A DNA stretch of 53,586 bases from Rhizaria sp. SCN 62-66 (Eukaryota): the NCBI GenBank assembly GCA_001724265.1, contig MEDY01000304.1, forward strand, positions 1 through 53,586, written 5' to 3'. Made by a program: the position numbers and the translations under genes. Shown in pieces: positions 6,621 to 37,753 of this stretch (position 1 is its first letter; every line of letters starts with the position of its first letter). The notes beneath the pieces are model-generated. The model searched no databases, had not been told where the DNA came from, and was given only the letters and a program-made list of their open reading frames with translations.

Positions 6621-8966
6621 TCAAGGGCGCCACATGTCGTGGTGCGGCAGCGGGGCCGCGTAGAGCTGCTGCTCCTGCTGCTGCAGCGCTGCCGCGACGG
6701 CCGCCTTGTCCGCCTCGGGGCTCCACCCCTGCCAGCCCTCGTTGTAGCCGTTGCTGTTGCTGTCGCCGATCGCGTTGCCGTGGCCGTTGCCGCTGCCGAG
6801 GCCGACGGGGCCAGTGAGCGCGGGCGCGCCCGAGAGATGCCTGGGCGGCAGGTGCGCCAGCAGCAGCGCCTGCGAGGCCACGACCTCGTCTCCGCGCACG
6901 CCCTCGCCCAGCACCGCGCCGCCGCTCACTGAGTCGCCGCCGGAGACGGCCTCACCGCCCGCCATCGCGCGCCCGCGCACGGCGCCCTCGGCCGCAGGCT
7001 CGTCGCCCGCCGCGGCCTCGGCCGGCAGCGCGGGCAGCGCCGCGGGCTCGGGGCCCTCGCCGGGCCGCAGCGTCTGCCGCTCCAGCTCGAAGCCGTACGC
7101 GCCGCCGGAAAAGCGCTGCACGAAGACGGCGTTGGCGTCGCCCGCCGCCGCCGCGCGCCGCCGCCGCGCCGCCGCCGTCGCCAACGCGTCCGCCGCAGCC
7201 TCCGCGCCAGTCTTGGCCCTGCCCTTGCCCCGAGCGCTGCCGCTGCCGTTGCCGCCGTTTTCGTCGTCGCTGCCGTCGCCGCGCTCGCGGATGCCGGCGC
7301 TGGCGCGCGCAAGCCGCTGCGTCGTCACCGCGTGGCTCGCCGCGACGGCGTACTTGCTCTCCACCCCGCTGCCCCCGCCCATCGCGAGGCCCATGGCGAG
7401 CACAGCGGCGGTGTCGGCCTCGGCGCCCGCGCCCGCGGCGGCGACGCCGTCTAGCAGCAGCGCGGCGGGCACCAGCTCCCCGCGCGCGCCGCGGGCAAAG
7501 CGCCCGTCGGGCTCGAGGCGCCAAACGTGGCCCGCGGCGTCGACGACGGTGCCTTTGTCGTCGACCACGCGCGCGCCCGTGGCCGTGACGGCGCCGCGCC
7601 GCAGCGCGCCCCCGCTACCCGTGCTGGCGCCCGTGGCGGAGAAGACGGCCGTCAGTCCGCGGCCCGCGCCCGCCGCCGCCTCGGCCGCGGCCAGCACGCC
7701 CGCGTCGGCGGGGCCCGGCGCGGGGTCACGCAGCGGCGCCGCCAGCGCGGCCGTCGCGGCGGGCAGCAAAGGGTGCGGCGCCCGCAGCGCGGCCGCGTCC
7801 ACCGGGTACGTCTGCCCGTTGAGTACGAAGAACTGCAGCCCCAGCGCGCGCGCGGATGCCAGCGCGGCGGCGCCCGCCTGCGTGGCCGCGGCGGGCGTCG
7901 CGGCGGCCGCGGCGGCGCGGCGGCGCTCCTCGGCGCCCAGCTGCGCGCGCAGACGTTGTGCGAAGGCCGCCGTCTCCTCCCGTGTGAAGTCCGCAGGGCT
8001 GACCGGGGAGGCCGCGCTCGCGTTCGCGCCAGCACTGCTGCTGTTAGCGCTGCTGGTGACGTTGTTGTAGCTAGGAGCAGTGGCCGAAGCGAAGGGATTC
8101 TGGCGGGCAGTCGTCGCCTGACCATGACTGTGACTTTGAGACTGCGGCTGAGGCTGAGGCTGAGTCTGCATCTGAATGGGAGCATATTCAGTCGCACTAG
8201 CGCTTGTGGCCGCGAAGTTGCGATCAGCGCGGGCAGCACTGTAGTTCTCGGCGCCAGAGACAGGACTCTGAGCGCCATTTGCGGCAGCGTGCTTTTGAGC
8301 AGCCACAGCAGCTTCAGTCGTGCGAGTGACAGTCACGCTGCTGGCATTACTATTGTAGTTCTGCGAGACTTGCAGCGGCTGCACCTGCCTTGCGCGCCTC
8401 GCGATGCGCGCGTCCGCGCCCGCGGCGAGGTTGTGGTACGCGTTCTGCGCATGCAGCGCCAATCGCAAAACCTCGGCCTCGAGCGCGCCCAGTCCGGCCT
8501 GCGCGACGGCCACGCGCGAGGCCGCCTGTAGCCCCGCGGCGAGCGTCTGCGCGCCCTCAGCGGCGCGCTGCTCGTCCAGCGCGCGCTGCGTCGCCGCGGC
8601 CACCTGCTGCGCGCGCGCGCTCGCTGCCTGGCGGTCCCCCGCGACGCGCGCGCGCACACGGGCGCGCACGCGTTGAGAAAAGGCCGCCACGCGCGCCTCC
8701 TCGGCGGCGCGCAGAGCCTGGTAGTTGTGCTCAACCACGGGCGCGTGCGCGTGGATTGCCGCGCCGCTCGTCACGGCCACTGCGCTCACTGTGGGAACTG
8801 CAGGCGCAGGGATGGGTGCAGCGCTGACGTTGTTCTGGTGATAGGCAGATGACGACAAAGGGGGCGCTGCGGCGGAGCTGTTGTATAAAGCTGGCGCAGC
8901 CGTGCGAACAACCTCGTACGCAGCGGGAGGCTGCGCGATGGGCAGTCGGTGCATCGACGTGCTCAT
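6621..8966 (-). CDS. Hypothetical Ala-rich protein with N-terminal coiled coil (~780 aa)
   Basis: Long ORF ending in TGA. The ATG at 8966 directly follows an acceptor-like ccccag, so an upstream exon is possible. Confidence 0.7.
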   Translation of the reverse strand: MSTSMHRLPIAQPPAAYEVVRTAAPALYNSSAAAPPLSSSAYHQNNVSAAPIPAPAVPTVSAVAVTSGAAIHAHAPVVEHNYQALRAAEEARVAAFSQRVRARVRARVAGDRQAASARAQQVAAATQRALDEQRAAEGAQTLAAGLQAASRVAVAQAGLGALEAEVLRLALHAQNAYHNLAAGADARIARRARQVQPLQVSQNYNSNASSVTVTRTTEAAVAAQKHAAANGAQSPVSGAENYSAARADRNFAATSASATEYAPIQMQTQPQPQPQSQSHSHGQATTARQNPFASATAPSYNNVTSSANSSSAGANASAASPVSPADFTREETAAFAQRLRAQLGAEERRRAAAAAATPAAATQAGAAALASARALGLQFFVLNGQTYPVDAAALRAPHPLLPAATAALAAPLRDPAPGPADAGVLAAAEAAAGAGRGLTAVFSATGASTGSGGALRRGAVTATGARVVDDKGTVVDAAGHVWRLEPDGRFARGARGELVPAALLLDGVAAAGAGAEADTAAVLAMGLAMGGGSGVESKYAVAASHAVTTQRLARASAGIRERGDGSDDENGGNGSGSARGKGRAKTGAEAAADALATAAARRRRAAAAGDANAVFVQRFSGGAYGFELERQTLRPGEGPEPAALPALPAEAAAGDEPAAEGAVRGRAMAGGEAVSGGDSVSGGAVLGEGVRGDEVVASQALLLAHLPPRHLSGAPALTGPVGLGSGNGHGNAIGDSNSNGYNEGWQGWSPEADKAAVAAALQQQEQQLYAAPLPHHDMWRP

Positions 8967-18218: not shown

Positions 18219-18360
18219 GTGTCTCGAAAAGTTGTTTGTGGCTGGAACGGGGGCGGCTTGACTTTGAGGTCCTCGGTCGGCGGACTTACCCCAGCGAGAA
18301 GATGAGCCGCAGGGCGTTGAGCGAATCGTGAGATTCAGGCTCAGTTTCGTCTTAATTAAG

Positions 18361-20042
18361 ATGTCTGTGGTACGTTTCCGCGCAAGCGCCTTTTTTCTAT
18401 TTATTTTATGATCCTACGCTGCGTTTCCGCGACGCGGGCGCGCACACTGGCCCGGCTGAAATAGCCCTCGGCCGACTCTTGTGGAGTGATAGGGGGGCCG
18501 CTCGCGACGCCTCGAGGCTCGGCAAAGCCCAGCTGCACCGCGCTCGGAGTTCTCGCTTTGGAGTTGACATGCACCACCTAGCTCTGGTCTTGCCGTATGT
18601 GTTCGCCGCATTGCGTCCGCGATCCTGGAGCGCCCCGGCAGACAGAGTCCGCTTTTACCTATTCCAGGTACCAGAGCAACCTCAGCCCATCAAAAGAGCA
18701 CCTCCTGCGCTTTCCTCCGGCGCCGGTTTTGCACCTCTTGAGGGCCTGCTGTCCTTACTATTGATATTGTACTCCCCGGCATATTGCTCACGTGCTATTT
18801 CCTTTTATTGTTTTTGCCATGGACATGATTGATCACCTACCCCCCGCTTTTGCGCCTTGACAGAAGATCCACACTTACCCCACCAACTTCCGTGCCTTCA
18901 AGGCGCTCATCGCCGCCCAGTACGCTGGCGTCGCCGAGCAGGTCGAGGTCGTCCCCGTCGTCATGGGCGAGACCAACAAGACCCCCGAGTTCCTCGCTAA
19001 GTTCCCCCTCGGCAAGGTCCCCGCCCTCGAGACCCCCCAGGGCCCCATCTACGAGTCCAACGCCATCATGGCCTACGTCGCCAACATGAACGGCGCCGTC
19101 AACCTCTACGGTGACAACCTCTACGAGAAGGCTCTCTGCGAGCAGTGGATCAACTTCTGCACTTGCGAGATCGAGCCCGCCGTGATCGCCCTCCTCCTCC
19201 CCCACTACAACATCACCACCTTCAACGAGGAGACCTACGCCGGCGCCAAGGCCAACGTCTTCAAGGCCTTCGCCGTCCTCGACGCCCACCTCAAGAAGAA
19301 CACCTTCATGCTCGGCTCCAAGATCTCCGTCGCCGACTTCGCCGTCTTCTGCTCGATCAAGTTCCTCTACTCGCACATCCTCAACTCCGTCGTCCAGGCC
19401 GAGTACCCCTCCGTCAAGCGCTTCTTCGTCACCATCGCCAACCAGCCCAACGTCCTCAAGGTCTGCGGCGCCTCCGCGATCGCCACCGACGAGAAGGCCG
19501 CCCCCGGCCAGAAGGTCGTCAAGCCCAAGGTCGTCGTCGCCGCCAAGGTCGTCGAGGAGAAGAAGAAGAACCCCCTCGACCTCCTCCCCCCCACCACCGT
19601 CCGCCTCGATGACGTCAAGCGCTCCTTCTTCTCCTCGCGCCCCTTCAACCCCGACTTCTTCCCCGGCTTCTTCGACACCTTCGACCATGAGGGCTACTCG
19701 TTCTGGAAGCTCGAGTACCTCTACCCTGAGGACTGGGACTACGACTACGTCGCCGACAACCTCGTCTCCGGTTTCCTCAACCGCTGCGAGGCCACCCGCA
19801 AGTACTCCTTCGGCGTCGTCAACGTCACTGGCGCCAAGGCCGGCGAGTTCCGCGGCTTCGGTGTCGTCATCTTCCGCGGCAAGGAGATCATCGCCGAGAT
19901 GAAGGACGTCACCGACTACGACGAGTACAAGTTCGAGCCCCTCGACGTCACCACCGAGGCCGGCAAGAAGTACTTCCAGTCCTGCTTCTGCGACACCGAG
20001 ATCGACGGCAAGGAGGTCACCGTCCGCCGCTGGCTTAAGTAA
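18361..20042 (+). CDS. EEF1G: Translation elongation factor eEF1B-gamma (395 aa); exons 18361-18369 and 18864-20042
   Basis: MSV|KIHTYPTNFRAFKALIAAQY, GST-like domain (FLAKFPLGKVPALET...IYESNAI), then KNPLDLLP and the C-terminal gamma domain (EGYSFW...NLVSGFLNR...KYSFG). Strong C-ending codon bias typical of high expression. Intron GTACGT...GACAG. Confidence 0.96.
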
Positions 20043-21366: not shown

Positions 21367-21616
21367 TCAACCCTGGGGAAGCTGCGGCTGCTGCGGCTGC
21401 GGCTGCGCGTTGCCACCGGCGCCTGCATTGGCGTTGGCGAGCGCAAGGCCTGCGAGTTCTGCCTCGAGGCGCGCCTGCTCCTGCTCCTGCTGCCGCTGCA
21501 GCGCCTGCAGCCGAGCCAGCGTGTCTTGTTGCGCCCTGATCTCAGCCTCCAGCTCTTCCCCAGTGCCCGTGCCAGCGCCAGCGCCAGCGGCGGCGGCGGC
21601 GGCGGCGTCTGCGGTG

Positions 21617-21691
<75 letters not shown>

Positions 21692-24420
21692 AGTTGCAGT
21701 TGTTGATGCTGCTGAAGCTGGAGCTGTTGCTGCTGCTGCTGGAGCAAGAGCTGGTACTGCTGTTGCTGTTGCAGCTGCAGCTGGTACTGCTGCATCTGCT
21801 GCTGCTGCTCGGGCGTCGCCGCGGCTGCAAACAGCTGCTGCAGCTGCTGCTCCTGGCCCTGCTGGCCTTGCTGCGCCTGCGCCTGCGCCTGCGCCTGCTG
21901 CTGCAGCTGGAGCTGGTACTGCAGCAGCTGCAGCTGCTGCAGCTGGTGCTGCTGCTGCAACAGCAGCTGCTGCTGTTGCGCCGCGGCAAGCTGCTGCTGC
22001 GCCGCCGCGGCCGCAGCCGCGTCCGCAGCCGCATCGACCGGCGCATCAGCCGCCGCACCAGAGCCCTGGGCAGCCTGGGCTTGAGCCTGGGCCTGCGCCT
22101 GGGCCTGGGCCAGAATGGCGGCCTGCTGCTGGGCCTGCGCCTGCTGCTGTTGCTGCAGCAGCTGCAACTGGAGCTGCAGCTGCAGCTGTTGTTGCTGCTG
22201 GGCCTGCGCCTGTGCTGCCGCCTGCTGTTGCTGCTGCTCGTGCGCCTGTTGTAGCTGCAGCTGCAACTGCTGCTGCTGTTGCTGCTGCTGTTGCTGCTCA
22301 TCGGTCGCGGCCGCAGCTGTCGCGCCCGCGCCCGGTGCACCAGCGGCGGAGCCGGCGGCCGCGGCCGCGGGCGCGAGCGGCACGGGCACGCCGTCGACCA
22401 TAAAGAGCACCGGCAGCGGCCCAGGGGCGGCCGCGGCGGCGCCGCCAGTCTCGGCGGCAGCGCCAGCAGCGCCAGCACCGGCGACAGAGCCATCAGCCTG
22501 CTGTTGTTGCTGCTGCGGGCCTTCCGCAGCGCCTGACGCGGCGTCCTGTTGCTGCAGCTGCTGTTGTTGCTGTTGCAGCTGTTGCTGCTGCTGCTGCTGC
22601 TGGATGGAGAGCCTGAAGTCGGTGAGCAGCACGCCAGCGACGTCGAGGAAGCTGAGCACGTGCCCGGCGGCGCGGCGCAGGTCGATGACGAGGTGCCCGC
22701 GCGGGGTCCGGAAGAGCGAGATGGCCACCTTGAGCCCCGCGCCCGCGGCGTAGGCCTGCTTGGCGCGCTCGCGGGCCGCCTCGGAGGGCGCGCGCTCCAC
22801 GGCCGGGAAGCGCGCCTTGAAGCGCCAGGCTGAGAGCTGACGCCACTCGAAGCCATGGCGGCGCAGCACGGCCAGCAGACACGTCAGCACCAAGTACGGC
22901 TCCTGCGCAGACCAGTGCCCCACGAACCACCGCCCCGCCGTGCTACCGCCGCCGCCGGCCGCCGCGTCGGCTGTTGCGGCTGTGGCGCTGGCCGCGGAGG
23001 CGGAGAGGCTGGGAACGAGCGAGGAGGGCGCGATGGGCGCGGCGGGGCCCGGCGCGGGCAGTGCAAGCGCGGCGAGCGCGGCCGCTGCGGACACGCGCTG
23101 GCCCAGCAGCTGCGCCGCGGCGCGCTCCTTGGCCGCCCGCAGCTTGTCCTTGCCAGTCGCGGCAGCAGGCGCAGCGGCAGGCGCAGCGACACCGCCGCCG
23201 TGGTCGTCACCCTTGTTGTCGTCGAGGTCGGCGGGGACCGCGGTCACGGCGGCGGCCGCGGCCTCCGTGATGAGCAGGTCGAGGCAGCGGTCGAGCCCGT
23301 CTGCGAAGACGCCCGGGCCCAGCTCGGCGGCCCGCCGCCGCGCCGCCGCCGCGCGCAGCGTCTCCCCGTCGGGGTCCGAGCCCAGCGCGCGCTGCTCGGC
23401 GATGCGCTCGTCGTCGGCCAGCAGCGCGTAGACAACGGCGTAGCGGCGCTCCTTGGTCAGGTGCGCGAGCTTGCGCGAGGTCGGCAGCTCAGGGCCCAGG
23501 CGCAGCGCGGCCAGCACTGCCTCGGGCGGGTAGCCCAGCTCGCGCCGCATCAGCTCCACCGTCGGCACATGCAGCTCGCGCGCGCGCGTGCTCAGCTGCG
23601 CGGGCGTCAGCGAGAGGTACACGGGCATGTTCTTGCGCGCCCAAGGGTGGAGTTGAACCTGCTCCATCGTCGCGCGCCGCGACGGGTCCGCGTCAAGCAT
23701 GCGCCGGATGAGGTCCGCCGCACCCGCGGGCACAAACGAGGGGATCTCGTACGAGGCCGACTTGATCTTGCGGAAGAGTGAGCGGATGTTCTCGTCATCG
23801 AAGGGCAGCGAGCCGCAGAGGCAGGCGTAGAGGATGACTCCGCAGGACCACACGTCGACCTCGGGCCCCGCGTAGAGGTGCCCCGAGATTACCTCGGGCG
23901 CCGCGTAGTTGGGCGAGCCGCACGAGGTCTTGAGGAAGAGTCCCTCGCGCATGACGTTGGAGAGCCCAAAGTCGGCGAGCTTGATGTGATTGTCGGCGTC
24001 GAGCAGCAGGTTCTCGGGTTTCAGGTCGCGGTGCACGACCAGGTGCGAGTGGCAGTAGGCGACGGCCGAAACCATTTCCTGGAAGAGTAGTCGCGCCTCG
24101 GCCTCGGGCAGCCGACCCTTGGAGACAATGTAGTCGAAGAGCTCGCCGCCGGGTACGTACTCCATGATGGTGAAGATGTCGGTGGGCGTGTCGATAACCT
24201 CGTAGATGCGGATGATGTGCGGGTGGTCGAACAGACGCAGGATGTGGATCTCAGTGCGCACCTTCTCGCCCATCTCCAGCTTGCGCAGCTTCTTCCTGTT
24301 CAGGATCTTAACGGCGACCTTCTTGCCCGTGACCTGGTGGTAGCCCAGGCGCACCTTGCAGAAGGTACCCGAGCCGATATGCCGGCCTAGCTTGTACTGG
24401 CCCACACGCTACAAGTTCAT
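21367..24420 (-). CDS. SNF1: SNF1/AMPK catalytic alpha subunit with polyQ tail; putative start ATG 24420 followed by in-frame TAG at codon 4
   Basis: Kinase motifs VAVK, HPHIIRIYEVIDTPTDIF, HRDLKPEN, DFG and KTSCGSPNYAAPEVISG. A KA1/CTD-like region follows (WFVG...LKVAISLFR...IDLRRAAG..LSFLD). The exact start is uncertain. Confidence 0.93.
21619..21690 (-). repeat. (CAG)~24 coding trinucleotide repeat (polyQ) in the SNF1 tail
   Basis: Uninterrupted ctg run on the + strand. Confidence 0.9.
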
Positions 24421-25409
24421 TGGTCAGGTCAGCTTCGAGAAGTCGGGGCTGTGTGTGTGTATGTGTGCGTGTAAGGGCAGATGCAACGCTGCGGCAAGTG
24501 TCGCTGTTGTTGTTGTTGGTGGTGGTGGTGGTGGTGGTTGCAACTCTAGGAGATTGTGGCGGCGCGCGGGCGGGCGGGCGCAGCGGTGTCTGCCGAGGAC
24601 TGGGGCTCGGCAGACGGGCTGAGAAGCGGGCGGGCGGGACGGCGGCGGCGGCGGGGGAGCGCCGAGAGCGGCCTGCGGCGGGCTGACTGCGGGACGGGCT
24701 CCGGCGCGGCGCGACGGGGACTCCAACTCCACTGGCGGGCTGAGCTGGGCTGCCACAATCGAGCGGACGGAAGCCTGTGGGGAAGCGAAGAGAAAGGCCG
24801 CTGAGACCTAAAACCAAGTGAAATCGAAATAAATGTTGGTAAGAAAGCAATAAAAACGTGTTGTGAGCGAAAGCAGACTGGAGCAGACGCGCTAACAAGG
24901 GTCAAAGTGAGTCGGGGAGACAGAGGGGGAACGGCTCACTGAGCAGGGATGGGTTCCGCCCGGAGGTCAAGCCGGCCGACAAATGAAACAGGGAAAATTA
25001 CAAAATGTAAAAATCGCGGTATATAGCGGTAGATACCCTGTCAAATTGAAGCTTGAAATCCACACGACCCACATATCGCAATTGCTTTCACCCCTTTGTC
25101 GCCCCCACCCTCCCCCGATTTTTTCGACCGAAGGTCCGACTGGCGACGCAGTCGGTGATTCTAGTTCGTAACATCCGGTCGGGCGTTTCGAGTGCGGCGC
25201 ACACATTGTCGCAACCAATTCAAAAATGACGAGGGCATTCAAGTATGTCTTTGTATTTTAAACATATCATAGGGATTATTACTACACCTGGCCCTATCAG
25301 GCCTGAGCAAGCGCAACTCAGGATGGTGAACAAACGCCCTTCTCTTCCCCTCAGTCTCTCGTCTCAACCTCTCTCTGTCTCCATGTCTCTCAGTCTCTCT
25401 CTCCGGCGA

Positions 25410-26530: not shown

Positions 26531-27047
26531 AAGTGGGGGCAGGAGCCGCCACGGCGGCGGTGGTGGCGGGGACCGACGGCATGAAGGTGGACGTGGGGAA
26601 CGTGCGGGATGTGCTGAAGGGCGTCGCTGCAGCTGCAGCCGGGGCGGGGGCTGCGGGAGCCGCGGAGGGTGTGGGTGCCGCGGCAGGGACGCGGCCGAAA
26701 GGGTTGGCCGGGGCGGAAAAGGCGGGGACCTGGGGCGCGGTGGGGAAGGCAGGCAGGGTGGGCGCCGACACAGGCGCGGGCGCGGAAAAGGCAGGAAACG
26801 CGGGGAACGGAGCAGGAGCAGCTGCGGGAGGAGCGCTGAAAGGTGCAGGCGCAGAGAACACAGGGAAAGAAGGAGCTGCGGGAGCAGCAGCGGGCACGGA
26901 AGGGAAGGTAGGCGCAGCAGGAAACGCGGGCTTGGTGTGGCTCGCGAACGGGTTGTCGGAAGCACCATAGCCCATGCTGGCATCTGCACCCATGTCAGGG
27001 ATGGAAAACCCAAAGTCGTCGTCTCCAAACGGTTGAGGAGCACTCAT
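25410..27047 (-). CDS. YIP1: Yip1-family ER-Golgi membrane protein (YIPF5/7-like) with long Pro/Ala/Phe-rich N-terminus
   Basis: DEDDIPLLEELGIDF, DLAGPLVFCLLLG, GKVHFGYIYG, VLGYCLAP and QRYLIAYPVALLY motifs. ATG at 27047 (MSAPQPF). Confidence 0.93.
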
Positions 27048-27379
27048 GACTGCAATAGGATATCGCACAAAGAGATTGAAAAGAAAGTCACGTTAGCCGA
27101 ACACGTCAGCAAAGCGACCGATCGCGAGGCAGTGAAATGATCCCACAAGCAAAATTGGTAAGAATTAAATTCTAATCTGATATTCACAAATTAAACGTCA
27201 GGCATAATACATTTGCCTCATAGCCAACCAACGACGTCTAGATAGAGAGATCCTGTGTCAAAGTTGGACCTTGAGTCCTGGGGACAGATTTTGCTCGAGC
27301 TCAACGGACAGGGTGACAATCTTTTCGATAAATCGCTTTGTTGTTTTGTGTCATGATGCTATTAACGTAAATTCTTTGC

Positions 27380-27960
27380 GCATTAAAGCTGCGTTAATGT
27401 ATTTTAAAGCTGCGTTAATGTATTTTAACTAGTATACTTTCCGAAACATGTCAAAACAATGACAGACGTTAAAAAAATGTATTTCCAAGTGCTACATTAA
27501 GCTAAAAGTAGGTTATTTAATAATTTAAACAAAAGAAAATATTATACATACATTTATAAAAAAGATATGATTTTTTTTGTTATTATTTTTTGCTCATTGA
27601 CTTTGTATTTTCAAAAATAACCTTTATTTACAAAAGAAATGCTAAATATATATTTGTTTACTTTATTACTATTATGAAGCGTTTTTTCTTTTCTGTCTTA
27701 GGAAAAGAATCCTTCGGGTAAATACTACAAACAAAACAGGCGGCAACTACAAGAGCTCACTAAATCAAAAGCCTAAATAAAATAATACTTTATTAATTAC
27801 TATTTGTTTAACACTTTTTACAACACCATTTATACGAAGGCCTTTCATTATTTTTTAAAATTGTTTCTATTTACAAAAGAAACATTACTGGTTTAATATA
27901 TCATTTTAACTTTTTAAAATATTTTTAATGCGTATAATACAGGTTTTACTTATATTTGTC
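27380..27960. other. Extremely AT-rich island (possible organellar insertion)
   Basis: Long A/T homopolymer runs. By eye far lower in GC than any other spacer in the window. Confidence 0.6.
27383..27428. repeat. 21-bp perfect tandem duplication (TTAAAGCTGCGTTAATGTATT x2.2)
   Basis: Seen directly at the left edge of the AT-rich island. Confidence 0.9.
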
Positions 27961-28536
27961 TACACTTTTCGGTTGACTTGCAAATGCACAGAATATTCAC
28001 CTCAGACAGCCGTATGTCTGTAAATTTCAAAGCAACTCCGACGACGATAAAATGTGAATTCAAAACAATAGTGCGCGGTCGGCAGAACAGTAGCGATGTT
28101 GCTGCGAGTTGGCGGAATGGATACAGATTGTATTAAAAGAGAGAGTGGTGGGTTGAATGAAGTGCATTAAGTTATTCCAGTATCACGGGGCAGTGTAATA
28201 TAATGAGTAACTGTACACTTCTTCGGACAGACAGCCAGTCGCTCAAGGTCACGCGAGAATTGCACAACACAGATTGGTATGCTACGTTTCGTACTTAACG
28301 TAATGCAACAACATACACAGAAACACAGGATGATAAGCGAGAGTTGGGATAATAGTCATAATAAGAAGACAATTAAGAAAAGCACTGGGATTCATCGGAC
28401 TTTCAAAAGACGGTCTACTCTTAAGGGATTAAAATGATCGTGATAATTTGGTTGATTGGACTAAGTAAACAATGTTGTTGATTTGTCGAGGGAAGACAAA
28501 TCGAGGGAATTACAATCACACACAGGTAGAGGTCAT

Positions 28537-31500
28537 TCAGTCGGCTTGCTGATCGAACAGTGACATGAGCCCAGCACCGCCCGCCTTGCGTAGCGGCAGA
28601 GTGCTCACCGGTTTGTTTTCGATCGAGGTCGGGCTCTTAGGCTGCAGATGCTGGGCCATCGCGGCGATGGACGCTGCCGCGCTCGAGCCGGCCAGCACAC
28701 GCACAGAAGGAGCGACGGTGCCGTCGCTCGCGACCACTTGCTGCTGCTGCAACAACTGCTGCTGCAGCGCTAGAGCTGACGTGAGCGTCGATGCCGAGAC
28801 AGCCGGGCCCACGTGCACCATTGCACCGTCCTCCACAACCGCAGCAACGGGATTGGTGAACATCGTGCGGTTGCTATTGACGGGCGAGTGAATCGGCGAG
28901 AGGCAGCTCAGCGGGTGGCCGCGGCGAGACTTGAGGTTGTAGGCGCTCTTGCCCGACTGCGCGTCCAGATTGACAATGAGAACAGTGATGTTGTCGGTGG
29001 AGCCCAGCCGGATCGCGCGCAGCGCCAGCTGCTCCGCGAGCCAGCTCCAGTCCGTCTCGTTCGGGTCGTCCCCGACCGACGCCGTCGACGACGACGACGC
29101 GGCACCAGCGCCAGCGCTCGTCCCAGCCACATCACTGTCTTTGCTGATTTGCGCAGCAGCGTTGCCGACAGCGGCGGCGGTGACGGCGTCCAGGTCCTCC
29201 AGCTCGATGCCCGTGCCTGCCTCGGAGTCTGAGCTCGAGCTCGAGTCCAGCACCAGCGACGAGAACCGGCCTCCGGGCGTCGTGCTTTGGCCCAGCTGCC
29301 CCGGCTGCGCCGTCGCTGCAACGCTGGTCGTCGCGGCCACGGTTTGGCGGCGCACCCTGGCCTTGCCGACGCCGGGCCTGCCGCTGCCCAGCGTCGTCCA
29401 CGAGCTCGCCTCGGCTGCTGCGGCGGCGGCCTCTGCCTCCGCGGCCTCTGCCTCGGCGTCGAGCGCCATGTCGCTGGCGGCGACCGAGGCCGCGACCGAG
29501 GCGGCGTCGTCGCCCGCGGCGGCGGTGAGCGCGTCGGGGACGCCGTAGAGGCGCGTGAAGCGCTCCTTGCCGATGCGGAGCAGGCGCAGCGCGTAGTCGC
29601 AGGCCTCCTGGTGGCTCATGACGTCCCAGAGCCCGTCGCAGGCGAGGATGAGGAACTGGTCCTCGTCCTCGAGCGCGACGACCTGCGTGTCGGGCACGGC
29701 AATGAGTCCGCTGGGCGCGCCGCCGGTGAACTCGGCGTCCTTGTACAGCACGTCACCCAGCGCGCGCGTGACGGCGATGGAGAAGCACGACGGCGTGTAG
29801 CGCGGGTGGCCCAGGCGGCCCTTGTAGGTCCGCGCGCCGCAGGCCTCGAGGCGCGCGCGCTCGGCGGGGTTGCGCAGCGTGTGCGGCACCGAGAGCGCGA
29901 CCGCACGGCCGGCGCGACACAGCACGCCCTCGCTGTCGCCAATGTTGCTCACGATGAGGTGGTTGTCGTGCAGCAGCGCGACCAGCGCCGTGGTGCCGCC
30001 GTCCAGGTCCAGCGCGCGCGCTAGCCCACACCACTCGCGCTCGAGCGTGGCGAAGGACTCGTGCAGCGCCGACACGACGTCCGAATTAAACGCGGGGTGC
30101 TTGAACAGGTAGTGCGCGATGCGGTCCGACACGTAGTCGGCGCACTCCGTCCCGCCGTGCCCGTCGCACACGCAGAAGAAGCCAGAGAGGTTGACCGCGC
30201 CGCCCGCGGTGCCCGACGCCGCGCCCGACGCGGCCGTCGCCGCGCCCGACGCGGCCGTCGCCGCTGCCGAGCCCGTGGCGGCGGTGCTAGTGGGCGAGGG
30301 CAGCGATGGCACGCCCGACGCAACGCTGCACGCGTCGCAGTTGAGCCCCAGCCCTGGCTGACCGAGGCCGTGGGCCTGCAAGCGCGCGTGCGCGTGGAGC
30401 GGGCAGGGCGCAGGACTGGGGCTGGGGCTGGCGCCGGGCAGCGGGCTCGCGCCGACGGTGACGCTGCTATTGTTCATGCCGCTGGCGCCGCCCATGCCGC
30501 TGGCGCCGCCCGCGCCGGCAAAGGCGAGCGCCGAGGGCGAGCGCGTCGACTGCGCCGACTGCAGCGCGGGCGACGCCGCGGCCTCGGCACCGTCGGCCAG
30601 CGACGCACTGGCGCTCGCCGCCGTCCCTGCGGGCGCCAGTGCCTGCGAGAAGGACGCCGCGCTGGGCGGCAGCCGGCCGAGGCCCGCGCCGCCCTGGCTC
30701 GAGCCGCCAACAGCAGCAGCGGAGGCTGCAGCGGCCGCGGCAGCAGCGGCAGCAGCGGCAGCGGCGGCTGATGAGCCGCCAACCACGCTGTTGCGCGCCG
30801 ACGCGTGCCTATAGCGCCCGTGTCCGTGGCCCGCGCCGCCGCCGCCGCCGCCGCTGCCCGCGATGGCGAGCGCGCGGGCGAAGGTGCGCGGCGTGGCCAG
30901 GATGGGCGCGTCCACGTCCACCTCGCCTGCGGTGCTCAGGCCAGCGCTCAGGCCAAAGCTCGCAGCAGCGCCGGCAGGAGTGCTCGCACCGGCGGCGGCG
31001 CCAGCGGAGGCGGTGACGCCCGTGAGCGGCGTGGGGGCGCGCGGCGGCGGCAGCAACGCGTGCGACTGCGAGAAGCTGGAGTTGGCGCTGTTAGCCGCAG
31101 TCGAGGACGCCGACACACTACTGTTGGCGTTGGCATTGCTGCTGTTGCTGTTAAAACCGCCGAAGTTGCAGACGCCGCTGAAGCTCTTGCGGCCGCGCGA
31201 GCCCGCCGCGGCGGCGGCCGCTGCGGCTGCAGCCGCCACGGCCGAGGCCGGCGCGGGCGCGGGCGCGGGCGCAGGGGAGGGCGAGGCAGAGCCTGCCGCA
31301 GAGGCGAGCGTCGAGGTCGAGCCCGAGGCGGAGGCCGAGGCGCCGAAGGTCGGGTACGGCAGCGGCGACGGCGACGGCGAGGGCGCCATGAAGACCTGCT
31401 GCAGCGCGCTCTGCAGCAACGCGCTCTTCTGCGGCTGTTGCGACTTGTTCTGCGCCTGTGTCTGCGTCAGCGCCTGCGCTTGCGCTTGGGCGCGGAGCCC

Positions 31501-34500
31501 GCGGCGCAGCGCGGCGACGGGCGTCACGGCGCTCGACGACGGCTCGGGCTCGGGCCCGCTGTCCGCCTCCGTCCTGGCGTCCAGGTCGGCAGCAGCGTCC
31601 ACGCCCGCGCCTCTGGCCTGCTGCTGCTGCTGCTGCAGGTCGAGACCCCAGAGCGAGGCCAGCGGCGACATCCCGCCGCGCGCGCCTACACCCGCCCCAG
31701 CGGCAGCAGTCATACCGCCAGCAGCGCTCATACCGCCAGCAGCGCCGGCAGCAGCGGCGCCGGCGGCAGTGATGCTGGGGTTCGAGACGGCGCGCGCGGG
31801 CGGCGCGGGGGCCGCGGCGACAGCGACGGCGGGCGCGGCCCTGCTGCTGGCCCTGAAGCGGCCCGCGCCCGCCGCGGCCGCTGCGGCCGCGGCGACGATG
31901 GCCGAGTCCGTGTCGGTGTCGGCGACCGAGTGCGCGGCCGAATAGGCGGCGACTGAGTGCGCGGCCGAGGACGCAGCGTCGGGCTCGGAGCCCGTCGCGC
32001 CGCCGGGGCCCGCGGCCTCGCTGTCAGCCTCGCTCGCGGCCGCGCGCGCCGCGCGGCACGACTGCAAGTACTTGGCGAAGTCGAGGTTCTCGTTCTCGCT
32101 TTCGCCGTGGCCGTGGCCGTGGCCGTGGCCGTGGCCGTGGCCGTGGCGGGGGTCGGGGCCGTCCGCGTCGCTGTCGCTGCCGCCGTTGCCGTCACTGTCG
32201 CTGCCGCCGCCATCGCCGTCGCCGTCGTGCAGGCGCGGGTCCTGGCGCCGCGGCTGCTGCGGCCGGCCCGGGCCGCCGCCCGCGGAGCCGGTCGTGCCCG
32301 TGGTCGTCGCCGCGCGCAGCCCCCGCATCGGCGCGGCGCCAGCGCTCGGGCCGGTGCCGGCGCCGGCGCCGGCGCCGGGGCCGGGGCCCTGGAGCGCATT
32401 GCCACGGCCCACGCCGGGCGGGCTACTGCCGCCACCGAAGCCGTAGCTGTAGCCGTTGCTGGCGGTCGGCGTCGGCGCGCCGGCCTCGGCCCCAGAGCCC
32501 CCTGCTGCTCCCGCGGCGGCTGCGGCTGCGGCGACAGCGCGGAGGCTGCTGTCGCCCGCGGCGGCTGCGGCGGCGAGCCCTGTGCCGAGCCCCAGCCCCA
32601 GGCCGCGGACCCAGCGGCCCTGCGACAGGCTCGCGCTCAGAGATGTCGAGCTGAGAGACGTCGCGCTGAGCGAGGCCGCGCTGAGCCCGGAGCTGGACAG
32701 GGGGGTGGCCGGGCTCGCGTGACCCGCGCCCGCGCCCGCGCCCGGGCCGCCGCTGCTACCGAAGCTGCTGCCGCTGGCGCTGGCGCTGTTGACAATAGCA
32801 GCGCCCGCCGCCGCGTCAGAGGCGCCGCCACCGAACAGACTGGCGAGGCTGTTGTTCATGTTGTTCGCGCCGGTGACGCCGCTGCCGAGGCCGCGGCCCG
32901 CCGCCGCTGCCGCCGCCGCCGCCGAAGCCGAGGCCGAGGACGAGGTCTTAAACGTGCAGAGCGGCGACCCGCCGGCCCAGTTGTTGCCGGGCGCCGCAGC
33001 CGGGCCGCCGGTGGTGCTAACGCTCAGCGCGGAGACCGGGACGGGGGCCGGGCTCTGCAAACTGCTCGCCACGCCGCCCTGCTGCTGTTGCTGCTGCTGC
33101 TTGGAGCCGATCTGCTTGGCGAGGCCCAGTCTACCCTGCTGCTTCGGCAGCCCGTGTCCCTGCCCCTGCGCCAGTGTCTGCCCCTGTCCGCCCGCGGCTG
33201 CGGCGGCTGCGGCTGCGGCGGGTTCGGTGTCCTGGAGCCGCGCCTGGGGCCTGATGCAGGGCAGCGCGCGGTGCGCGTCTTCCATGGTCCCGCGGCGGCC
33301 CTGGAGCGCGAAGACGCCGAACTGCGCGCGGCCCAGCCGCCGCAGGTGCGCGCTGTGAGGGTGCGAAGCCCACGCGCGCGCCACCGCGCCCGCGTTGCCG
33401 CCGGAGCCGGCGTTGCCAGAGCCAGAGGCAGAGCCCTGCTGCGCGGACGCCGACGTGGACGCCAGAGCCGGGGCCGGAGCCGGGGAGGGCGCTGGGGAGG
33501 GCGACGGCGACGGCGAGAGCGCGGGCGACAGACAGTGCGACTGCGACAGCGAGTGCGCGTGCGACTGCGCGGCGCAGGGCCCGTCCGCGCAGTGGCTGTG
33601 CGCGGGGTGGCCGTGCGCGCACACGAGCCCGAGCCCGCGCGACGGCGGCCGCGACAGACCCAGGCCCAGGCCCAGGCCCGGGCCCGGTCCGGTCGCAGCC
33701 GCTGCCGCTGCCGCAGCGGCGCCGGTGGCGGCGGGCGCTGGCGCGGCGACGGACGGGGTGAACGCTGCCGTGACGCCAGCGGGGGCCGTGGGGGCCGTGG
33801 TCATGGTGGGGGCCGCGGACGAGGGCCGGACAGCCGTCGCGCCCGCGCCGCTGGAGCCCGTGAACCCAGCGCCATTGGTGTAGGCGCCACCGCCGCCGCT
33901 GCCGTGGGCGGCGCGCGCGTGGGCGTGGGCAGTCATCGCCGCGGTGGGCGTGGCGGCCACGGGCATCGCAGGCCGGGCCACGAGGCTCACGCCAGGGACG
34001 GCGCTGCCGGTGCCGTTGGCGCTACTGGCGGAGGTGGCAGCGGTCGTCGCGGCGGCGGCGGCGGCCGCTCTCGGGCCGAAGCCTCCCGACGCAGCGGCGG
34101 CCGCAGCGGGCCCCGAGGCCGGCGCGTGCGGCGCGTGGGGGCCGTGGGGTGACAGCTGCGAGAGCGTCTGCGAAAGCGTCTGCGAGAGAGAGGACGGGGA
34201 TAGCGGCGCCAGCAGCGGCGGCGGCGGCGGGCCCGCTGGCGGGTGGGGCACCACGAGCACGCTGCTCGCGCCGCTGCTGCTCGTGGCGCCGGCGCCCGCG
34301 CCCGCGCCGCTGCTGACGCTCGTGGTCAGCGGGAAGTTGGCGTAGGTGAAGGTGGCGCTGGCTGCCTTGGGGCTGCTCGCGCGGAACCCAGACACGCTCA
34401 GCGCGGGCGCGGGCGCGGGCGTCGGGTTTGGGGTGGGCGCAGCGCCCGGCGCGCTGAGCGCGGACGTCGAGCCCGCGGCGCTAAGCGCAGGCGTAGGCGC

Positions 34501-36003
34501 ACTCGCGGCGCTGGCGGCGTTCGCAGCGCCGGGACCGGCCTGCGGCTGCGGCTGCGCTAGGGTGACGGCGTGGTTGGCCGCGCTGGAGCTGGTCCGCGAG
34601 CTCGAGTTGGAGCTGGTGGCAGAGCCAGAGTTGCCGCTGCTGCCGCTGCTGCTGCTGTGGCCGCTCGTGCTGCGGCGCGCCTGCGCGATTGCGGCTGCAA
34701 GCGACGCGGGCGAAAACGGTGAGCCGGGACCCGTTCCAGCGCCAGCGCCAGCGCCGGTGCCCGAGCTGGTGCCGGCGTCAGCGCTCGCGATTCTAGCGCT
34801 GCCGGAGGCGCCGGCAATGCCGAGCGTGGCAGCAGCGGCGCTGAAGCCGCCGCCGGCCATGATGGCTCGTCCGAGCGGCACGCTGCCGCCTGCGCCCGTG
34901 TGGCCCACCCCCGTGGCGCTGGTGCTGCTGGTGCTGGTGCTGGTGCTGGTGCTGGTGCTGGTGCTGGTGCTGGTGCTGGTGCTGTTGAGGTGGCTTGTGG
35001 CGGCGGGCGGGCTGGCGCTGTGTGCGCGCAGCGGCGCCCGGGGGCTGGCGCTAGAGCTTACGCCGCCGCCGCCGCCGCCGCTGCTGCCGCCGCCGCCGCC
35101 GCTGCCGCCGCCGCCGCCGCTGGCGCTGCTGCCATTGGTGCTGGTGACCGAGGCCGCGGCCGAGGGGGAGCGCGCGAGCAGCGCGGGCAGCAGCGGGCCG
35201 TGCTGCGGGGGCTGCTGCTGCTGCTGCTGTTGGTGGGTCTGGGTCTGATGCACGTGGGCGTGCTGCTGGGTGGGCGACAGCGGCGACAGCGGCAGCGGCA
35301 GCGGCGGCGAGAGCGCCGCCAGCGGCGACGCGCGGCCGCCCAGCAGCCCCAGGCTCGCTCCCGCCGCCGCCGTGGCCGCGTAAGAAGGCGAAAGCGAGCG
35401 CTGCAGACCCAGACTCAGACGGAGGCCAGGCCCCGCAGGCTGCTGCTGCTGTGCGCCGCCCTCGTAGCCGTAGCCGTAGCCATAGCCATACGCATGACTA
35501 CTACTGCTGCAGCTGCTGGGGCCGGAGCTGTTTTCGCGGTAGAGCGCGGGAGGCAGCGCGGCCGAGGACGAAGACGCGGGCGAAAGTGCCGCGGCGTGGG
35601 TCAGGCCTCCGTAGGCGGCAGCGGTGGCGACGGCGGGCAGTGGCGGCGCGGGCGCGGGCGCGTGGACCGAAGACATCAACATCAAGTGGGGGGCCGGAAT
35701 GGGGGCCGGGGCGGAGCCGGAGAACGAGACGGGGGCCGGGGCGAGGGCAAGAGGGCGGGACGCAAGGCTACCAGTGTGCGAGGCAGTCGCGGCCGCGGCT
35801 CTGGAGGGCCCCGTGTCGGCGAAGCTGTCCCTGACGTCGCCAGGCCCCCTGCCGTCGGCCACCGCGGCCGAGGAGACTTTGGGGGCGCAGAACATGACGC
35901 TCGCGGGGGCGTTGGTGAAGGAAAAGGAGCTAAGCAGGTCCACAAGTTGACAAAAGTTGAGCAAGGTGGGGTTGTGAAGAGGTTTACATACGGTGACAAA
36001 CAT
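28537..36003 (-). CDS. Giant PPM/PP2C Ser/Thr phosphatase (up to 2488 aa) with very large low-complexity insertions
   Basis: PP2C motifs in canonical order: QGRRGTMEDAH, FCVCDGHGG, GGTTA, NIGDS, AVTRALGD, FLILACDGLWDV, GSTDNITV. The start may instead be ATG 35895 (MFCAPK). Confidence 0.9.
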   Translation of the reverse strand: MFVTVCKPLHNPTLLNFCQLVDLLSSFSFTNAPASVMFCAPKVSSAAVADGRGPGDVRDSFADTGPSRAAAATASHTGSLASRPLALAPAPVSFSGSAPAPIPAPHLMLMSSVHAPAPAPPLPAVATAAAYGGLTHAAALSPASSSSAALPPALYRENSSGPSSCSSSSHAYGYGYGYGYEGGAQQQQPAGPGLRLSLGLQRSLSPSYAATAAAGASLGLLGGRASPLAALSPPLPLPLSPLSPTQQHAHVHQTQTHQQQQQQQPPQHGPLLPALLARSPSAAASVTSTNGSSASGGGGGSGGGGGSSGGGGGGVSSSASPRAPLRAHSASPPAATSHLNSTSTSTSTSTSTSTSTSTSSTSATGVGHTGAGGSVPLGRAIMAGGGFSAAAATLGIAGASGSARIASADAGTSSGTGAGAGAGTGPGSPFSPASLAAAIAQARRSTSGHSSSSGSSGNSGSATSSNSSSRTSSSAANHAVTLAQPQPQAGPGAANAASAASAPTPALSAAGSTSALSAPGAAPTPNPTPAPAPALSVSGFRASSPKAASATFTYANFPLTTSVSSGAGAGAGATSSSGASSVLVVPHPPAGPPPPPLLAPLSPSSLSQTLSQTLSQLSPHGPHAPHAPASGPAAAAAASGGFGPRAAAAAAATTAATSASSANGTGSAVPGVSLVARPAMPVAATPTAAMTAHAHARAAHGSGGGGAYTNGAGFTGSSGAGATAVRPSSAAPTMTTAPTAPAGVTAAFTPSVAAPAPAATGAAAAAAAAATGPGPGLGLGLGLSRPPSRGLGLVCAHGHPAHSHCADGPCAAQSHAHSLSQSHCLSPALSPSPSPSPAPSPAPAPALASTSASAQQGSASGSGNAGSGGNAGAVARAWASHPHSAHLRRLGRAQFGVFALQGRRGTMEDAHRALPCIRPQARLQDTEPAAAAAAAAAGGQGQTLAQGQGHGLPKQQGRLGLAKQIGSKQQQQQQQGGVASSLQSPAPVPVSALSVSTTGGPAAAPGNNWAGGSPLCTFKTSSSASASAAAAAAAAGRGLGSGVTGANNMNNSLASLFGGGASDAAAGAAIVNSASASGSSFGSSGGPGAGAGAGHASPATPLSSSGLSAASLSATSLSSTSLSASLSQGRWVRGLGLGLGTGLAAAAAAGDSSLRAVAAAAAAAGAAGGSGAEAGAPTPTASNGYSYGFGGGSSPPGVGRGNALQGPGPGAGAGAGTGPSAGAAPMRGLRAATTTGTTGSAGGGPGRPQQPRRQDPRLHDGDGDGGGSDSDGNGGSDSDADGPDPRHGHGHGHGHGHGHGESENENLDFAKYLQSCRAARAAASEADSEAAGPGGATGSEPDAASSAAHSVAAYSAAHSVADTDTDSAIVAAAAAAAAGAGRFRASSRAAPAVAVAAAPAPPARAVSNPSITAAGAAAAGAAGGMSAAGGMTAAAGAGVGARGGMSPLASLWGLDLQQQQQQARGAGVDAAADLDARTEADSGPEPEPSSSAVTPVAALRRGLRAQAQAQALTQTQAQNKSQQPQKSALLQSALQQVFMAPSPSPSPLPYPTFGASASASGSTSTLASAAGSASPSPAPAPAPAPASAVAAAAAAAAAAAGSRGRKSFSGVCNFGGFNSNSSNANANSSVSASSTAANSANSSFSQSHALLPPPRAPTPLTGVTASAGAAAGASTPAGAAASFGLSAGLSTAGEVDVDAPILATPRTFARALAIAGSGGGGGGAGHGHGRYRHASARNSVVGGSSAAAAAAAAAAAAAAASAAAVGGSSQGGAGLGRLPPSAASFSQALAPAGTAASASASLADGAEAAASPALQSAQSTRSPSALAFAGAGGASGMGGASGMNNSSVTVGASPLPGASPSPSPAPCPLHAHARLQAHGLGQPGLGLNCDACSVASGVPSLPSPTSTAATGSAAATAASGAATAASGAASGTAGGAVNLSGFFCVCDGHGGTECADYVSDRIAHYLFKHPAFNSDVVSALHESFATLEREWCGLARALDLDGGTTALVALLHDNHLIVSNIGDSEGVLCRAGRAVALSVPHTLRNPAERARLEACGARTYKGRLGHPRYTPSCFSIAVTRALGDVLYKDAEFTGGAPSGLIAVPDTQVVALEDEDQFLILACDGLWDVMSHQEACDYALRLLRIGKERFTRLYGVPDALTAAAGDDAASVAASVAASDMALDAEAEAAEAEAAAAAAEASSWTTLGSGRPGVGKARVRRQTVAATTSVAATAQPGQLGQSTTPGGRFSSLVLDSSSSSDSEAGTGIELEDLDAVTAAAVGNAAAQISKDSDVAGTSAGAGAASSSSTASVGDDPNETDWSWLAEQLALRAIRLGSTDNITVLIVNLDAQSGKSAYNLKSRRGHPLSCLSPIHSPVNSNRTMFTNPVAAVVEDGAMVHVGPAVSASTLTSALALQQQLLQQQQVVASDGTVAPSVRVLAGSSAAASIAAMAQHLQPKSPTSIENKPVSTLPLRKAGGAGLMSLFDQQAD

Positions 36004-37753
36004 GGCGTAGCTTGATAGGGACGAGAAGTCCTTCTAAACGAGGGAGACTTGAGGGAGCAGTGTCAAGGCAATAGGGCACGCTAGACATCACAAGCAGCGA
36101 TTCAATTCAATCATAAACACAAATAAGATTAAATGTTCCAACACATTTTCAAAACATTGTTTTACACAAGGACGGATGAGCGCAAACGCTGCGTCTGTTT
36201 GTTCCAGACGCTGCTCTTCTCGGTCAAGATCCTTCTCGCTGACTGTAGTGGAGAATGAAGAACTTGAGGCTAGAACGCTTTGACCGCGGCAAGGGTGTGG
36301 TGACGCTTTCTGATGAAGATCATACTGAATGCACAACATGGTCGAAACTTGATTTATTTAGTTTTGTTAGTTTAACTTCAATATCAGCTCGATATCATTT
36401 TGTCTCGCGACCATAATATCATTGATCAACCCTGGACTGCTTATAGTCCGCTTCATTCAGCACCACAGACGTTTAACATCCACACTCAATACAATGGCAG
36501 TGTTCACTAAGTACCTACAGTTGCATTAAAGCTCCACAATGCTCTTATCGCCGCTTCACTGCACGCAGCAGCGCACACTCTCCCCCCATCTATCCCAGCG
36601 CTGCACAGGCTCTGAGTGACAGCGCTCACTTGCGAGGCCCTACAGCGCGTGGCACACTCGCGCGCCCGATGTACCGCCTCATCAGCACTCACTGTCATAG
36701 CCCCATCTGCAGCCCACCAAGGGAGTCGCCGCGTCTCAGCCTGAGCCCGCAGTCGCACTACTTACAGTGGAATGATGAGTGCACAGAGTGGCAAGCAAGA
36801 GCAGGAACGGACGGCGAAGGAAGCCGAGTCCTGCAACAGGAGCAGCACAAACAAAGACATCGCACACAGGCAACAACATACAGCGATGGGCAGACGCGCG
36901 CGCCACCGTCTGTGGCGAGCACAGATGGAAGATTAGCTTGTCAGAAGCCTTCCATTGGCATGGGTGCTCGTAGCAGTCCCGGGCCATGTAAGCACATTTG
37001 CACACAGCAACACTGCCTCATCACATATCACACACACGTCTCGTATTCAGTTTGGCCATCAAAACACGCTCATGGCTCCATCAAGCTTCAGTGCAGGTAT
37101 ATGGAAGACGATTGGCCACCTTAGAGCGAACTTGGAACAACCATTTTGGCATGACGCCAAGCGTTACAGCCATCGTCAACAGGACTTTTAAAAGCAAAGA
37201 CGGTATGAAAAGTCAGTAACAGACCTCACCCGACCATTACACACTTGCTTGGGTCGGTCAGCATATGCAGGGACACAAATTCGATAGTTTGCCGACTGGT
37301 TGGCTGGCGAGCTCGGGGCCGAAAAAAGATTAAGTCCAGCCGGCGACCGGAGCAGCCCGGCTTAACTTCGAGCTATGCGCGGTCCCAGAGCCGACCCATC
37401 TTCGGCCGCCGCCTTGATTGTTCTCGCGTCGCGCCAGGTCTTAGTCTTGAGCTTTTGGAGTGGTATGCTAGAATAGTATTGATGTTTATCTCCTTGCTGT
37501 TAGGTATCATGTTGCTATGCGCGCTTTGTTTGCGTCATGGGAGGTGCTTGGGAGAGCTCGCTGTGCCCCCAGCCCCACAGCCCAAGTGCTAAGAGAGAGC
37601 CCAGGAACGCTCTTTCGACGCGGCCGCTCTTGTGCCCGCGGGCTTTGCGTGTTTTGTAATTTTGCGTGGTTGTAGTATCCGAGCTTCTCTCTCACATGCT
37701 TTCGTGTGTTCCCTTTTGTTTTTCGTTTCTGCCTTCGTACGCCCACAGACAGG

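Follow-up and report, generated by a model that had tools for sequence, protein, structure and literature searches.

An in-frame TAG at codon 4 of a conserved SNF1/AMPK kinase gene in DNA from Rhizaria sp. SCN 62-66

Programmed readthrough of stop codons is known from viral genes of the gag–pol and replicase type and from cellular genes in which it produces C-terminal extensions, and leaky scanning, re-initiation and main open reading frames (ORFs) initiated at non-AUG codons (GUG or CUG) are likewise known. Spliceosomal introns of phase 0 are reportedly overabundant directly after the start codon, and changes of the genetic code that affect UAG alone are said to occur, among other organisms, in phyllopharyngean ciliates. 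Here we examine a TAG codon near the 5′ end of a gene for the catalytic subunit of the kinase SNF1/AMPK, on the minus strand of a 53,586-nucleotide (nt) contig from Rhizaria sp. SCN 62-66 (GenBank assembly GCA_001724265.1, contig MEDY01000304.1), the whole of which we call the window. For UAG-only codes, Panek et al. 2017 (PMC5304391) describe Rhizaria sp. exLh, in which UAG encodes Leu, with 384 in-frame UAG codons in 71 genes at conserved Leu positions and with 56 UAA, 15 UGA and 0 UAG stops, as well as Iotanema spirale, in which UAG encodes Gln while UAA and UGA are kept as stops. In the window, the SNF1 TAG stands alone, directly ahead of an intact kinase, and we consider an early stop that throttles or disables SNF1 more likely than a new genetic code.

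On the minus strand, ATG (24420–24418) is followed by AAC, TTG, TAG (24411–24409), CGT (24408–24406) and GTG (24405–24403), which reads MNL*RVGQYKLGRHIGSGTFCKV. The letters CTGACCTGACC A directly precede the ATG, and CGT GTG GGC CAG TAC AAG CTA GGC follows the TAG, giving the conceptual translation MNL*RVGQYKLG with the TAG as codon 4, in frame with the SNF1/AMPK ORF. A preliminary description of this DNA had pointed to this in-frame stop, and it was reproduced at these positions. The ORF itself (21367–24408, minus strand) comprises 1013 codons, ends in TGA at 21367–21369 and has a Gln/Ala-rich tail. Its product belongs to the AMPK/SNF1 family: Pfam detects a Pkinase domain (E = 8e-76) at ORF residues 5–256, beginning at the Y of YKLG; a search of 5.8 billion proteins returned 7989 matches, the best at 59–65% identity, several of these best matches being named AMPK alpha or SNF1-related kinase (KIN10) by their sources; and the Gly-rich loop, the VAVK lysine, HRDLKPEN, DFG and the activation-loop Thr in (L)KTSCGSPNYAAPE are all present. 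The kinase is the only Pfam domain in the 1013-residue ORF, with no match to a C-terminal regulatory domain (AMPK alpha C-terminal or KA1-like), and the stretch GRWFVGHW...LRRHGFEWR...FKARFP resembles, by eye, the RW.LG...FEWK...KAR block of the homologues. In a phylogenetic tree, the protein is sister to the metagenome protein P0004 (Shimodaira–Hasegawa-like approximate likelihood ratio test (SH-aLRT), 99) and is otherwise unplaced, the tree assigning it neither to Rhizaria nor to any named group.

The sequence around the TAG recurs in several data sets. The sequence derives from metagenomes of bioreactors and wastewater; parts of the stretch are present in 12 runs, which belong to 10 studies, and four of the runs (X2–X5) were compared, the X3 table being identical to that of X2 and counted as the same data. 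Two DNA contigs cross the site with 0 differences from the window, X2 record 6 over 24220–24493 and X4 record 23 over 24217–24460, the latter from a separate study dated 2025. The RNA contig X5 record 31, which stems from a polyA RNA-seq library, spans 24129–24418 (minus strand) at a depth of 3.7 and agrees with the window at 290 of 290 letters; it is colinear with the window across the TAG and reaches 10 nt upstream of the CGT, ending at the G of the ATG. The TAG, unchanged in all three contigs, is genuine DNA and not an assembly error. The proposal in the preliminary description that reads might show CAG, AAG or TTG here, as an error or as another allele, is ruled out by these independent contigs, and we likewise rejected a sequencing or assembly error, given the same letters in the X2/X3, X4 and X5 contigs, and RNA editing, given that the RNA contig itself reads TAG. 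A stop codon with a conserved in-frame ORF downstream of it, the arrangement expected of readthrough, is therefore found in an RNA-library contig, one of depth 3.7 that could also derive from DNA or pre-mRNA. Among the contig pieces and loose ends listed, which are contigs and not raw reads, no junction or loose end lies at 24408/24409.

The same comparison bears on the populations sampled. DNA contigs of the 2016/2017 runs (X2, X3) and of the 2025 run (X4) equal the window over 244–741 nt, non-coding sequence included, an identity that fits a near-clonal lineage in which a single mutation can be fixed. One 2025 run (X4) additionally contains a second lineage, which differs by about 9% and was seen in neither X2 nor X3. 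Compared with the window over 23839–24259, a span that stops short of the TAG, 27 of its 28 changed codons are synonymous and one replaces Ile by Val, from which we conclude that the kinase is under purifying selection. Genome and viral contig collections contained no match to further DNA of the organism or of a close relative, a metagenome scan for relatives returned one unrelated kinase at 23% identity, and protein searches gave nothing above 65% (SNF1), 84% over a partial fragment, or 71% (EF1-gamma); EF1-gamma has one relative at 71% identity, all others being at 46% or less.

ATG 24420 is the only plausible start codon of SNF1, and presumably the ancestral one. In an alignment of ten homologues, this ATG (24418–24420; context ccaATGa) is aligned with the start Met of three, namely P0012 (MTAIRIGPYRLG), P0013 (MSVTKIGGYRLG) and P0025 (MSVVQIGPYRLG), and the residues opposite the TAG are I, T, V, V, S, V, V, A, L and I. 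Coding must begin at or before CGT 24408, because the R-V-G-x-Y-K-L-G directly after the TAG matches the family. The next in-frame ATG (24271–24273), Met 50 of MNL*..., lies behind the GSGTFCKV loop and the VAVK lysine, so that a product started there would lack both the Gly-rich loop and the lysine, as the preliminary description had stated. GTG at 24403–24405 is the sole near-cognate start downstream of the TAG that keeps the whole kinase domain (product MGQYKLG...), and on sequence grounds we infer it as a candidate for the actual start codon. Position −3 of ATG 24420 is C, as it is at the starts of two other genes of the window, a purine being present at most starts. A same-frame TGA (24426–24424) stands two codons ahead of the ATG.

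Further upstream, 652 nt (24421–25072, minus strand), whether leader, promoter or intron, are free of ATG, against 3.43 expected (P = 0.022, the share of 3000 dinucleotide shuffles without any ATG). Between 25409 and 24409, the only minus-strand ATGs are at 25384, 25270, 25265, 25238, 25206, 25174, 25074 and 24420. The motif GTAYGT is absent from the minus strand at 24421–25409, up to the stop of the neighbouring gene at 25410; the whole window has 31 matches to it, the nearest at 24160, inside the kinase ORF. The preliminary description, which had found no other upstream ATG for about 650 nt and no upstream GTACGT donor, was accurate on both points. An N-terminal extension in the open frame 24424–24807 was considered and rejected, as it has no ATG, is closed by the TGA at 24426–24424 and has no coding score. 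A (CCA)7(ACA)4 repeat at about 24494–24546 (minus strand) shares the frame of the kinase, but the TGA and the TAG intervene between the two; at this repeat, contigs from other runs are interrupted.

We tentatively read this locus, at somewhat less than an even chance, as the source of an SNF1 mRNA that is colinear with the DNA, unspliced and interrupted in frame by a genuine UAG, under the standard set of stop codons, the kinase being made by readthrough or by initiation or re-initiation at GUG, or else lost. ATG 24420 would be the ancestral start, from which ribosomes would make Met-Asn-Leu and then mostly terminate at the UAG. A minority might decode the UAG by near-cognate readthrough, giving MNLxRVGQY..., or might initiate or re-initiate at GUG 24405, two codons past the UAG, giving MGQYKLG.... 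The TAG would then be a strong translational attenuator of SNF1, or a null allele. These translational steps are proposed to explain what the contigs and alignments contain, namely a TAG present in DNA and in an RNA library, a homologously placed ATG and an intact, selected kinase. The codon could have arisen by a single base change from CAG, TCG, TTG, AAG, GAG, TGG or TAC; a recently fixed nonsense mutation is plausible because the sampled populations are near-clonal, and the TAG may be such a mutation rather than an evolved control element. Of the options offered in the preliminary description, a rare sense codon, readthrough or re-initiation, the last two form part of our reading; the description took into account neither a simple nonsense mutation carried by a near-clonal lineage nor the habit of start-proximal introns that we describe below. 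The ATG-free 652 nt upstream count in favour of an early UAG, being as expected of a scanned leader.

Several observations weigh against this reading. If nonsense mutations struck 1018 codons at random, only about 0.5% of them would hit one of the first 5. UAG CGU GUG is a context unlike known readthrough signals; readthrough is favoured by contexts of the CAR-YYA type, and none is present at the SNF1 TAG. The predicted fold of 24310–24430 reveals no stimulatory structure (z = −1.3; an equally good fold arises in 22 of 200 shuffles). Ribosomes would be expected to re-initiate poorly at a distance of 3 nt from a stop, and GUG 24405 has C at −3. The RNA library may hold DNA or unspliced RNA, X5 record 31 being the sole RNA contig over the site and its depth only 3.7. 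The motif CTGACCTGAC followed by TTGTAG looks like a branch point and an acceptor, and the lack of TAG at all 15 gene ends counted is left unexplained. An Rfam search over the TAG region gave no match at E up to 1.

Whether an intron ends at the TAG can be judged against the other genes of the window. In at least 5 of about 15 genes, the ATG and 2–7 codons are followed by GTACGT and an intron of about 160–500 nt. In the EF1-gamma gene, the arrangement at 18361–18863 (plus strand) is ATG TCT GTG / GTACGT ... gacag / AAG ATC CAC, with an intron of 494 nt. In the Notchless gene, at 14403–14070 (minus strand), ATG AGT / GTACGT opens an intron of 298–328 nt with an ambiguous acceptor, one TAG or two CAGs, and an in-frame TAG (14102–14100) within the 3′ end of this intron could itself be the acceptor. 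Start-proximal GTACGT donors of two further genes are at 18065 and 15450 (minus strand), and other putative GTACGT donors are at 45553, 44955 and 44567 (minus strand) and at 37937, 46098, 46832 and 9266 (plus strand); all 11 of 11 putative donors are GTACGT, a count biased by the use of this motif as the search query. Acceptors are mostly GCAG or CAG, the four that are unambiguous and homology-checked and three provisional ones all being CAG, and YYGAC-like motifs precede about four of eight acceptors in the window, as judged by eye. Internal introns of RPL32 and of a gene for a Cet1-like messenger RNA triphosphatase are confirmed by the continuity of Pfam profiles across exons.

Against this background, TTGTAG could be the 3′ splice site of a start-proximal intron, with a short upstream exon supplying the ATG and with ATG AAC TTG occurring by chance, an arrangement that we regard as unlikely, although the gene structures just described make it the obvious rival. 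The TAG stands exactly at the point at which homology begins, and the Notchless gene offers a parallel in the in-frame TAG at its intron's 3′ end. The branch-point-like motif CTGACCTGAC (24423–24432, minus strand), which includes CTGAC twice and contains the in-frame TGA 24426–24424, lies 12–23 nt upstream of the TAG. There is one candidate for a phase-0 exon 1, ATG TGG GTC beginning at 25074 with the non-consensus donor GTGTGG (25060–25074, minus strand), which would yield MWV/RVGQY across an intron of 657 nt; it has no read support and is the only phase-0 candidate free of contradiction by RNA. The case for splicing is opposed by the absence of GTAYGT from the 1 kb of minus strand that separates the TAG from the stop of the neighbouring gene, by the acceptors, four unambiguous and homology-checked and three provisional, which are CAG and not TAG, and by X5 record 31, which extends 10 nt into the supposed intron without a junction. 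An intron of 652 nt free of ATG would have P = 0.022, whereas two known introns contain 5 and 3 ATGs, and an in-frame ATG at the start column of the homologues would be a coincidence of a few percent. The idea of a splice acceptor at the TAG, raised in the preliminary description as one of the outcomes that would refute a special codon, is thus weakened, because the upstream sequence yielded no exon 1, the unambiguous acceptors read CAG and the RNA contig follows the genome through the TAG without a break.

Other ways of splicing around the TAG were tried and rejected. For an exon ATG 25238...TGT/GTGCGC, the RNA contig X5 record 32 (25118–25339) is colinear over the site; a phase-2 exon ATG 25074...ACAGG/GTATCT has no phase-2 acceptor; tiny introns beginning at the GT of TTGTAG (16, 22 and 26 nt) each shift the frame or create a stop; and for a start codon split by an intron (A/TG or AT/G), there is no in-phase AG followed by TG or G near 24409–24388.

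A transcript that begins at or just past the ATG would also remove the stop, leaving AUG and UAG untranslated and the product to start at GUG 24405 or, as a kinase-dead isoform, at Met 50. We think this improbable. X5 record 31 does end at 24418, no X5 RNA contig lies on 24419–25117, which is not evidence of absence, and short leaders seem to be present in two other genes, in which TCAGTTT stands 20 and 56 nt before the ATG. Yet a contig end at a depth of 3.7 is not a mapped 5′ end, and within the ORF, too, RNA contigs cover the sequence in patches; the good placement of the ATG and the lack of any other over 652 nt would be coincidences; and the Met 50 product would be without the ATP-binding loop and lysine, both of which are nevertheless conserved. 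The two genes concerned are EF1-gamma (20 nt) and Notchless (56 nt). The TCAGTTT motif, which may be an initiator-like element, also lies near other likely gene starts, with none upstream of SNF1; it occurs at 18341 (plus), 14459 (minus), 37047 (plus), 46191 (plus), 20273 (plus) and 20881 (minus).

The third rival concerns the code itself. The stops at 15 gene ends are nine TAA (6230, 12038, 12297, 15068, 20042, 38404, 43943, 46546 and 46973), six TGA (6621, 16127, 21367, 25410, 28537 and 43182) and 0 TAG; six of these ends are anchored by homology, seven close long, biased ORFs and two (15068 and 46546) belong to provisional small genes. No TAG occurs in the 11,582 codons of 10 trusted ORFs or in 1,467 further translated codons, so that SNF1 codon 4 is the sole in-frame TAG in about 13,000 codons of the window. 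Both counts bear out the preliminary description. Off-frame, TAG is 2.8 times commoner than TAA (3.75 against 1.33 per 1000), and its scarcity at gene ends is hence not compositional. The probability of 0 TAG among 15 stops is 0.013, 0.035 or 0.21 for an assumed TAG share of 25, 20 or 10%, which makes the count suggestive only as evidence for a code change. When TAA and TGA alone are read as stops, no gene is lengthened at its 3′ end, and TAG-bearing additions arise only at the 5′ flanks of SNF1, of Notchless (the intron end) and of a PP2C-domain gene (its leader). The window holds no tRNA with a CUA anticodon and no eRF1 gene, and its single tRNA call is a doubtful tRNA-Pro.

A code of the exLh type, with UAG as Leu or Gln, was rejected, there being one TAG in about 13,000 codons here and 384 in 71 exLh genes (PMC5304391). 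The reassignment of UAG put forward in the preliminary description accordingly fails in its known form on codon counts, and keeps as its support the 0 of 15 TAG stops, with a chance probability of about 0.01–0.2. What this leaves is a UAG that is no efficient terminator, as a near-unused sense codon or a near-unassigned one, SNF1 codon 4 being decoded to give MNLxRVGQY. There is, in our estimate, a slim chance of this, and an equally slim one of its more specific form, in which UAG has ceased to be a terminator and is nearly unassigned, at an early stage of codon capture, with SNF1 codon 4 among its first sense uses and read as an aliphatic residue such as Leu. The 0 of 15 gene ends despite the off-frame abundance of TAG would be accounted for; ATG 24420 is placed as in homologues; the TAG column is aliphatic or small in 10 of 10 homologues and would suit Leu; and UAG-only reassignments are on record for exLh and Iotanema (PMC5304391). 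Against this, UAG usage would be more than 100-fold below that of any described case, with a single instance at codon 4, and 15 stops are a small sample (P = 0.21 at a 10% TAG share). The rest of the window does not need a code change, because TAA and TGA behave as normal stops and, across about 13,000 codons, the SNF1 TAG is the only one in frame.

Some features of the window lie to one side of these questions. The PP2C-domain gene (28537–36003, minus strand) encodes a 2488-residue low-complexity protein with the PP2C domain near its C terminus (E = 6e-48). The tRNA call, made by ARAGORN, is an 88-nt tRNA-Pro (CGG) at 7019–7106 (plus strand), within a 781-codon ORF (6621–8966) and antisense to it, and is probably a false call in GC-rich coding DNA. 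GC (guanine and cytosine) content is about 0.7–0.8 in most gene-rich 1-kb windows and falls to 0.31 in one spacer; this spacer (27001–28000), between genes with GC above 0.7, is the sharpest drop in composition in the window. Rosculus was rejected as the source organism, because a genome GC of 37.7% (PMC10770858) is out of keeping with the values of the coding windows here. The Cet1-type mRNA triphosphatase gene (43943–45600, minus strand) has at least four exons. At RPL32 (37040–37760, plus strand), a pyrimidine tract and cacag stand before ATG 37754, and a possible first exon farther upstream contains TCAGTTT and an ATG in frame and closes with GTATAT; this suggests an intron in the 5′ untranslated region with a donor other than GTACGT. 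Two metagenomic homologues of SNF1 from outside the window, P0011 and P0015, carry a large insertion between ...RLGK and TLGIGSF, within the Gly-rich loop region, with precomputed Pfam matches to PF05204 and PF05203; we take these to be the homing-endonuclease and Hint domains of inteins, and to find an intein in a nuclear kinase of the AMPK type would be unusual.

SNF1/AMPK is a central energy sensor of eukaryotes, and the copy described here, intact and under selection, meets a stop at codon 4, shortly after its sole AUG. Such an arrangement could mean a natural loss or strong attenuation of the SNF1 pathway in a cosmopolitan sludge protist, or instead an unusual translational gate in which an in-frame mini-ORF abuts an AUG-less main ORF; at low probability, it would be a first glimpse of UAG leaving the stop set. 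In that last case, UAG alone would have changed its meaning in a lineage other than ciliates, fornicates and the single rhizarian known for this, at a stage not known to have been seen so far. For annotation, the window calls for intron-aware gene models with first exons of 2–7 codons, as ATG-to-stop or prokaryote-style callers would mis-start many genes, SNF1 included.

Set beside the described systems, the locus resembles each in part. As in exLh and Iotanema, TAA and TGA end genes and TAG ends none, and the in-frame TAG stands where homologues are aliphatic; the exLh gene set has 384 UAGs at conserved Leu positions, whereas the single in-frame TAG of the window occupies an N-terminal position that is not conserved. 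Start-proximal spliceosomal introns are numerous in the window, and the TAG, with a branch-point-like motif upstream of it, stands at the expected end of such an intron, but no donor or ATG exon was found for SNF1, TAG takes the place of CAG and the RNA contig is unspliced. With programmed readthrough, the locus shares an in-frame UAG beyond which the reading frame stays open over a long and conserved stretch; known cases extend the C terminus of a complete protein, whereas the SNF1 stop comes as early as codon 4, ahead of every functional part. We know of no described case of an in-frame mini-ORF that abuts an AUG-less main ORF with GUG re-initiation 3 nt on. Short upstream ORFs and AUG-proximal stops nevertheless come close, with a 3-codon ORF just before a conserved ORF, a near-cognate GUG and a weak ATG context; the SNF1 locus departs from them in that its mini-ORF is in frame and abuts a main ORF without an AUG before residue 50.

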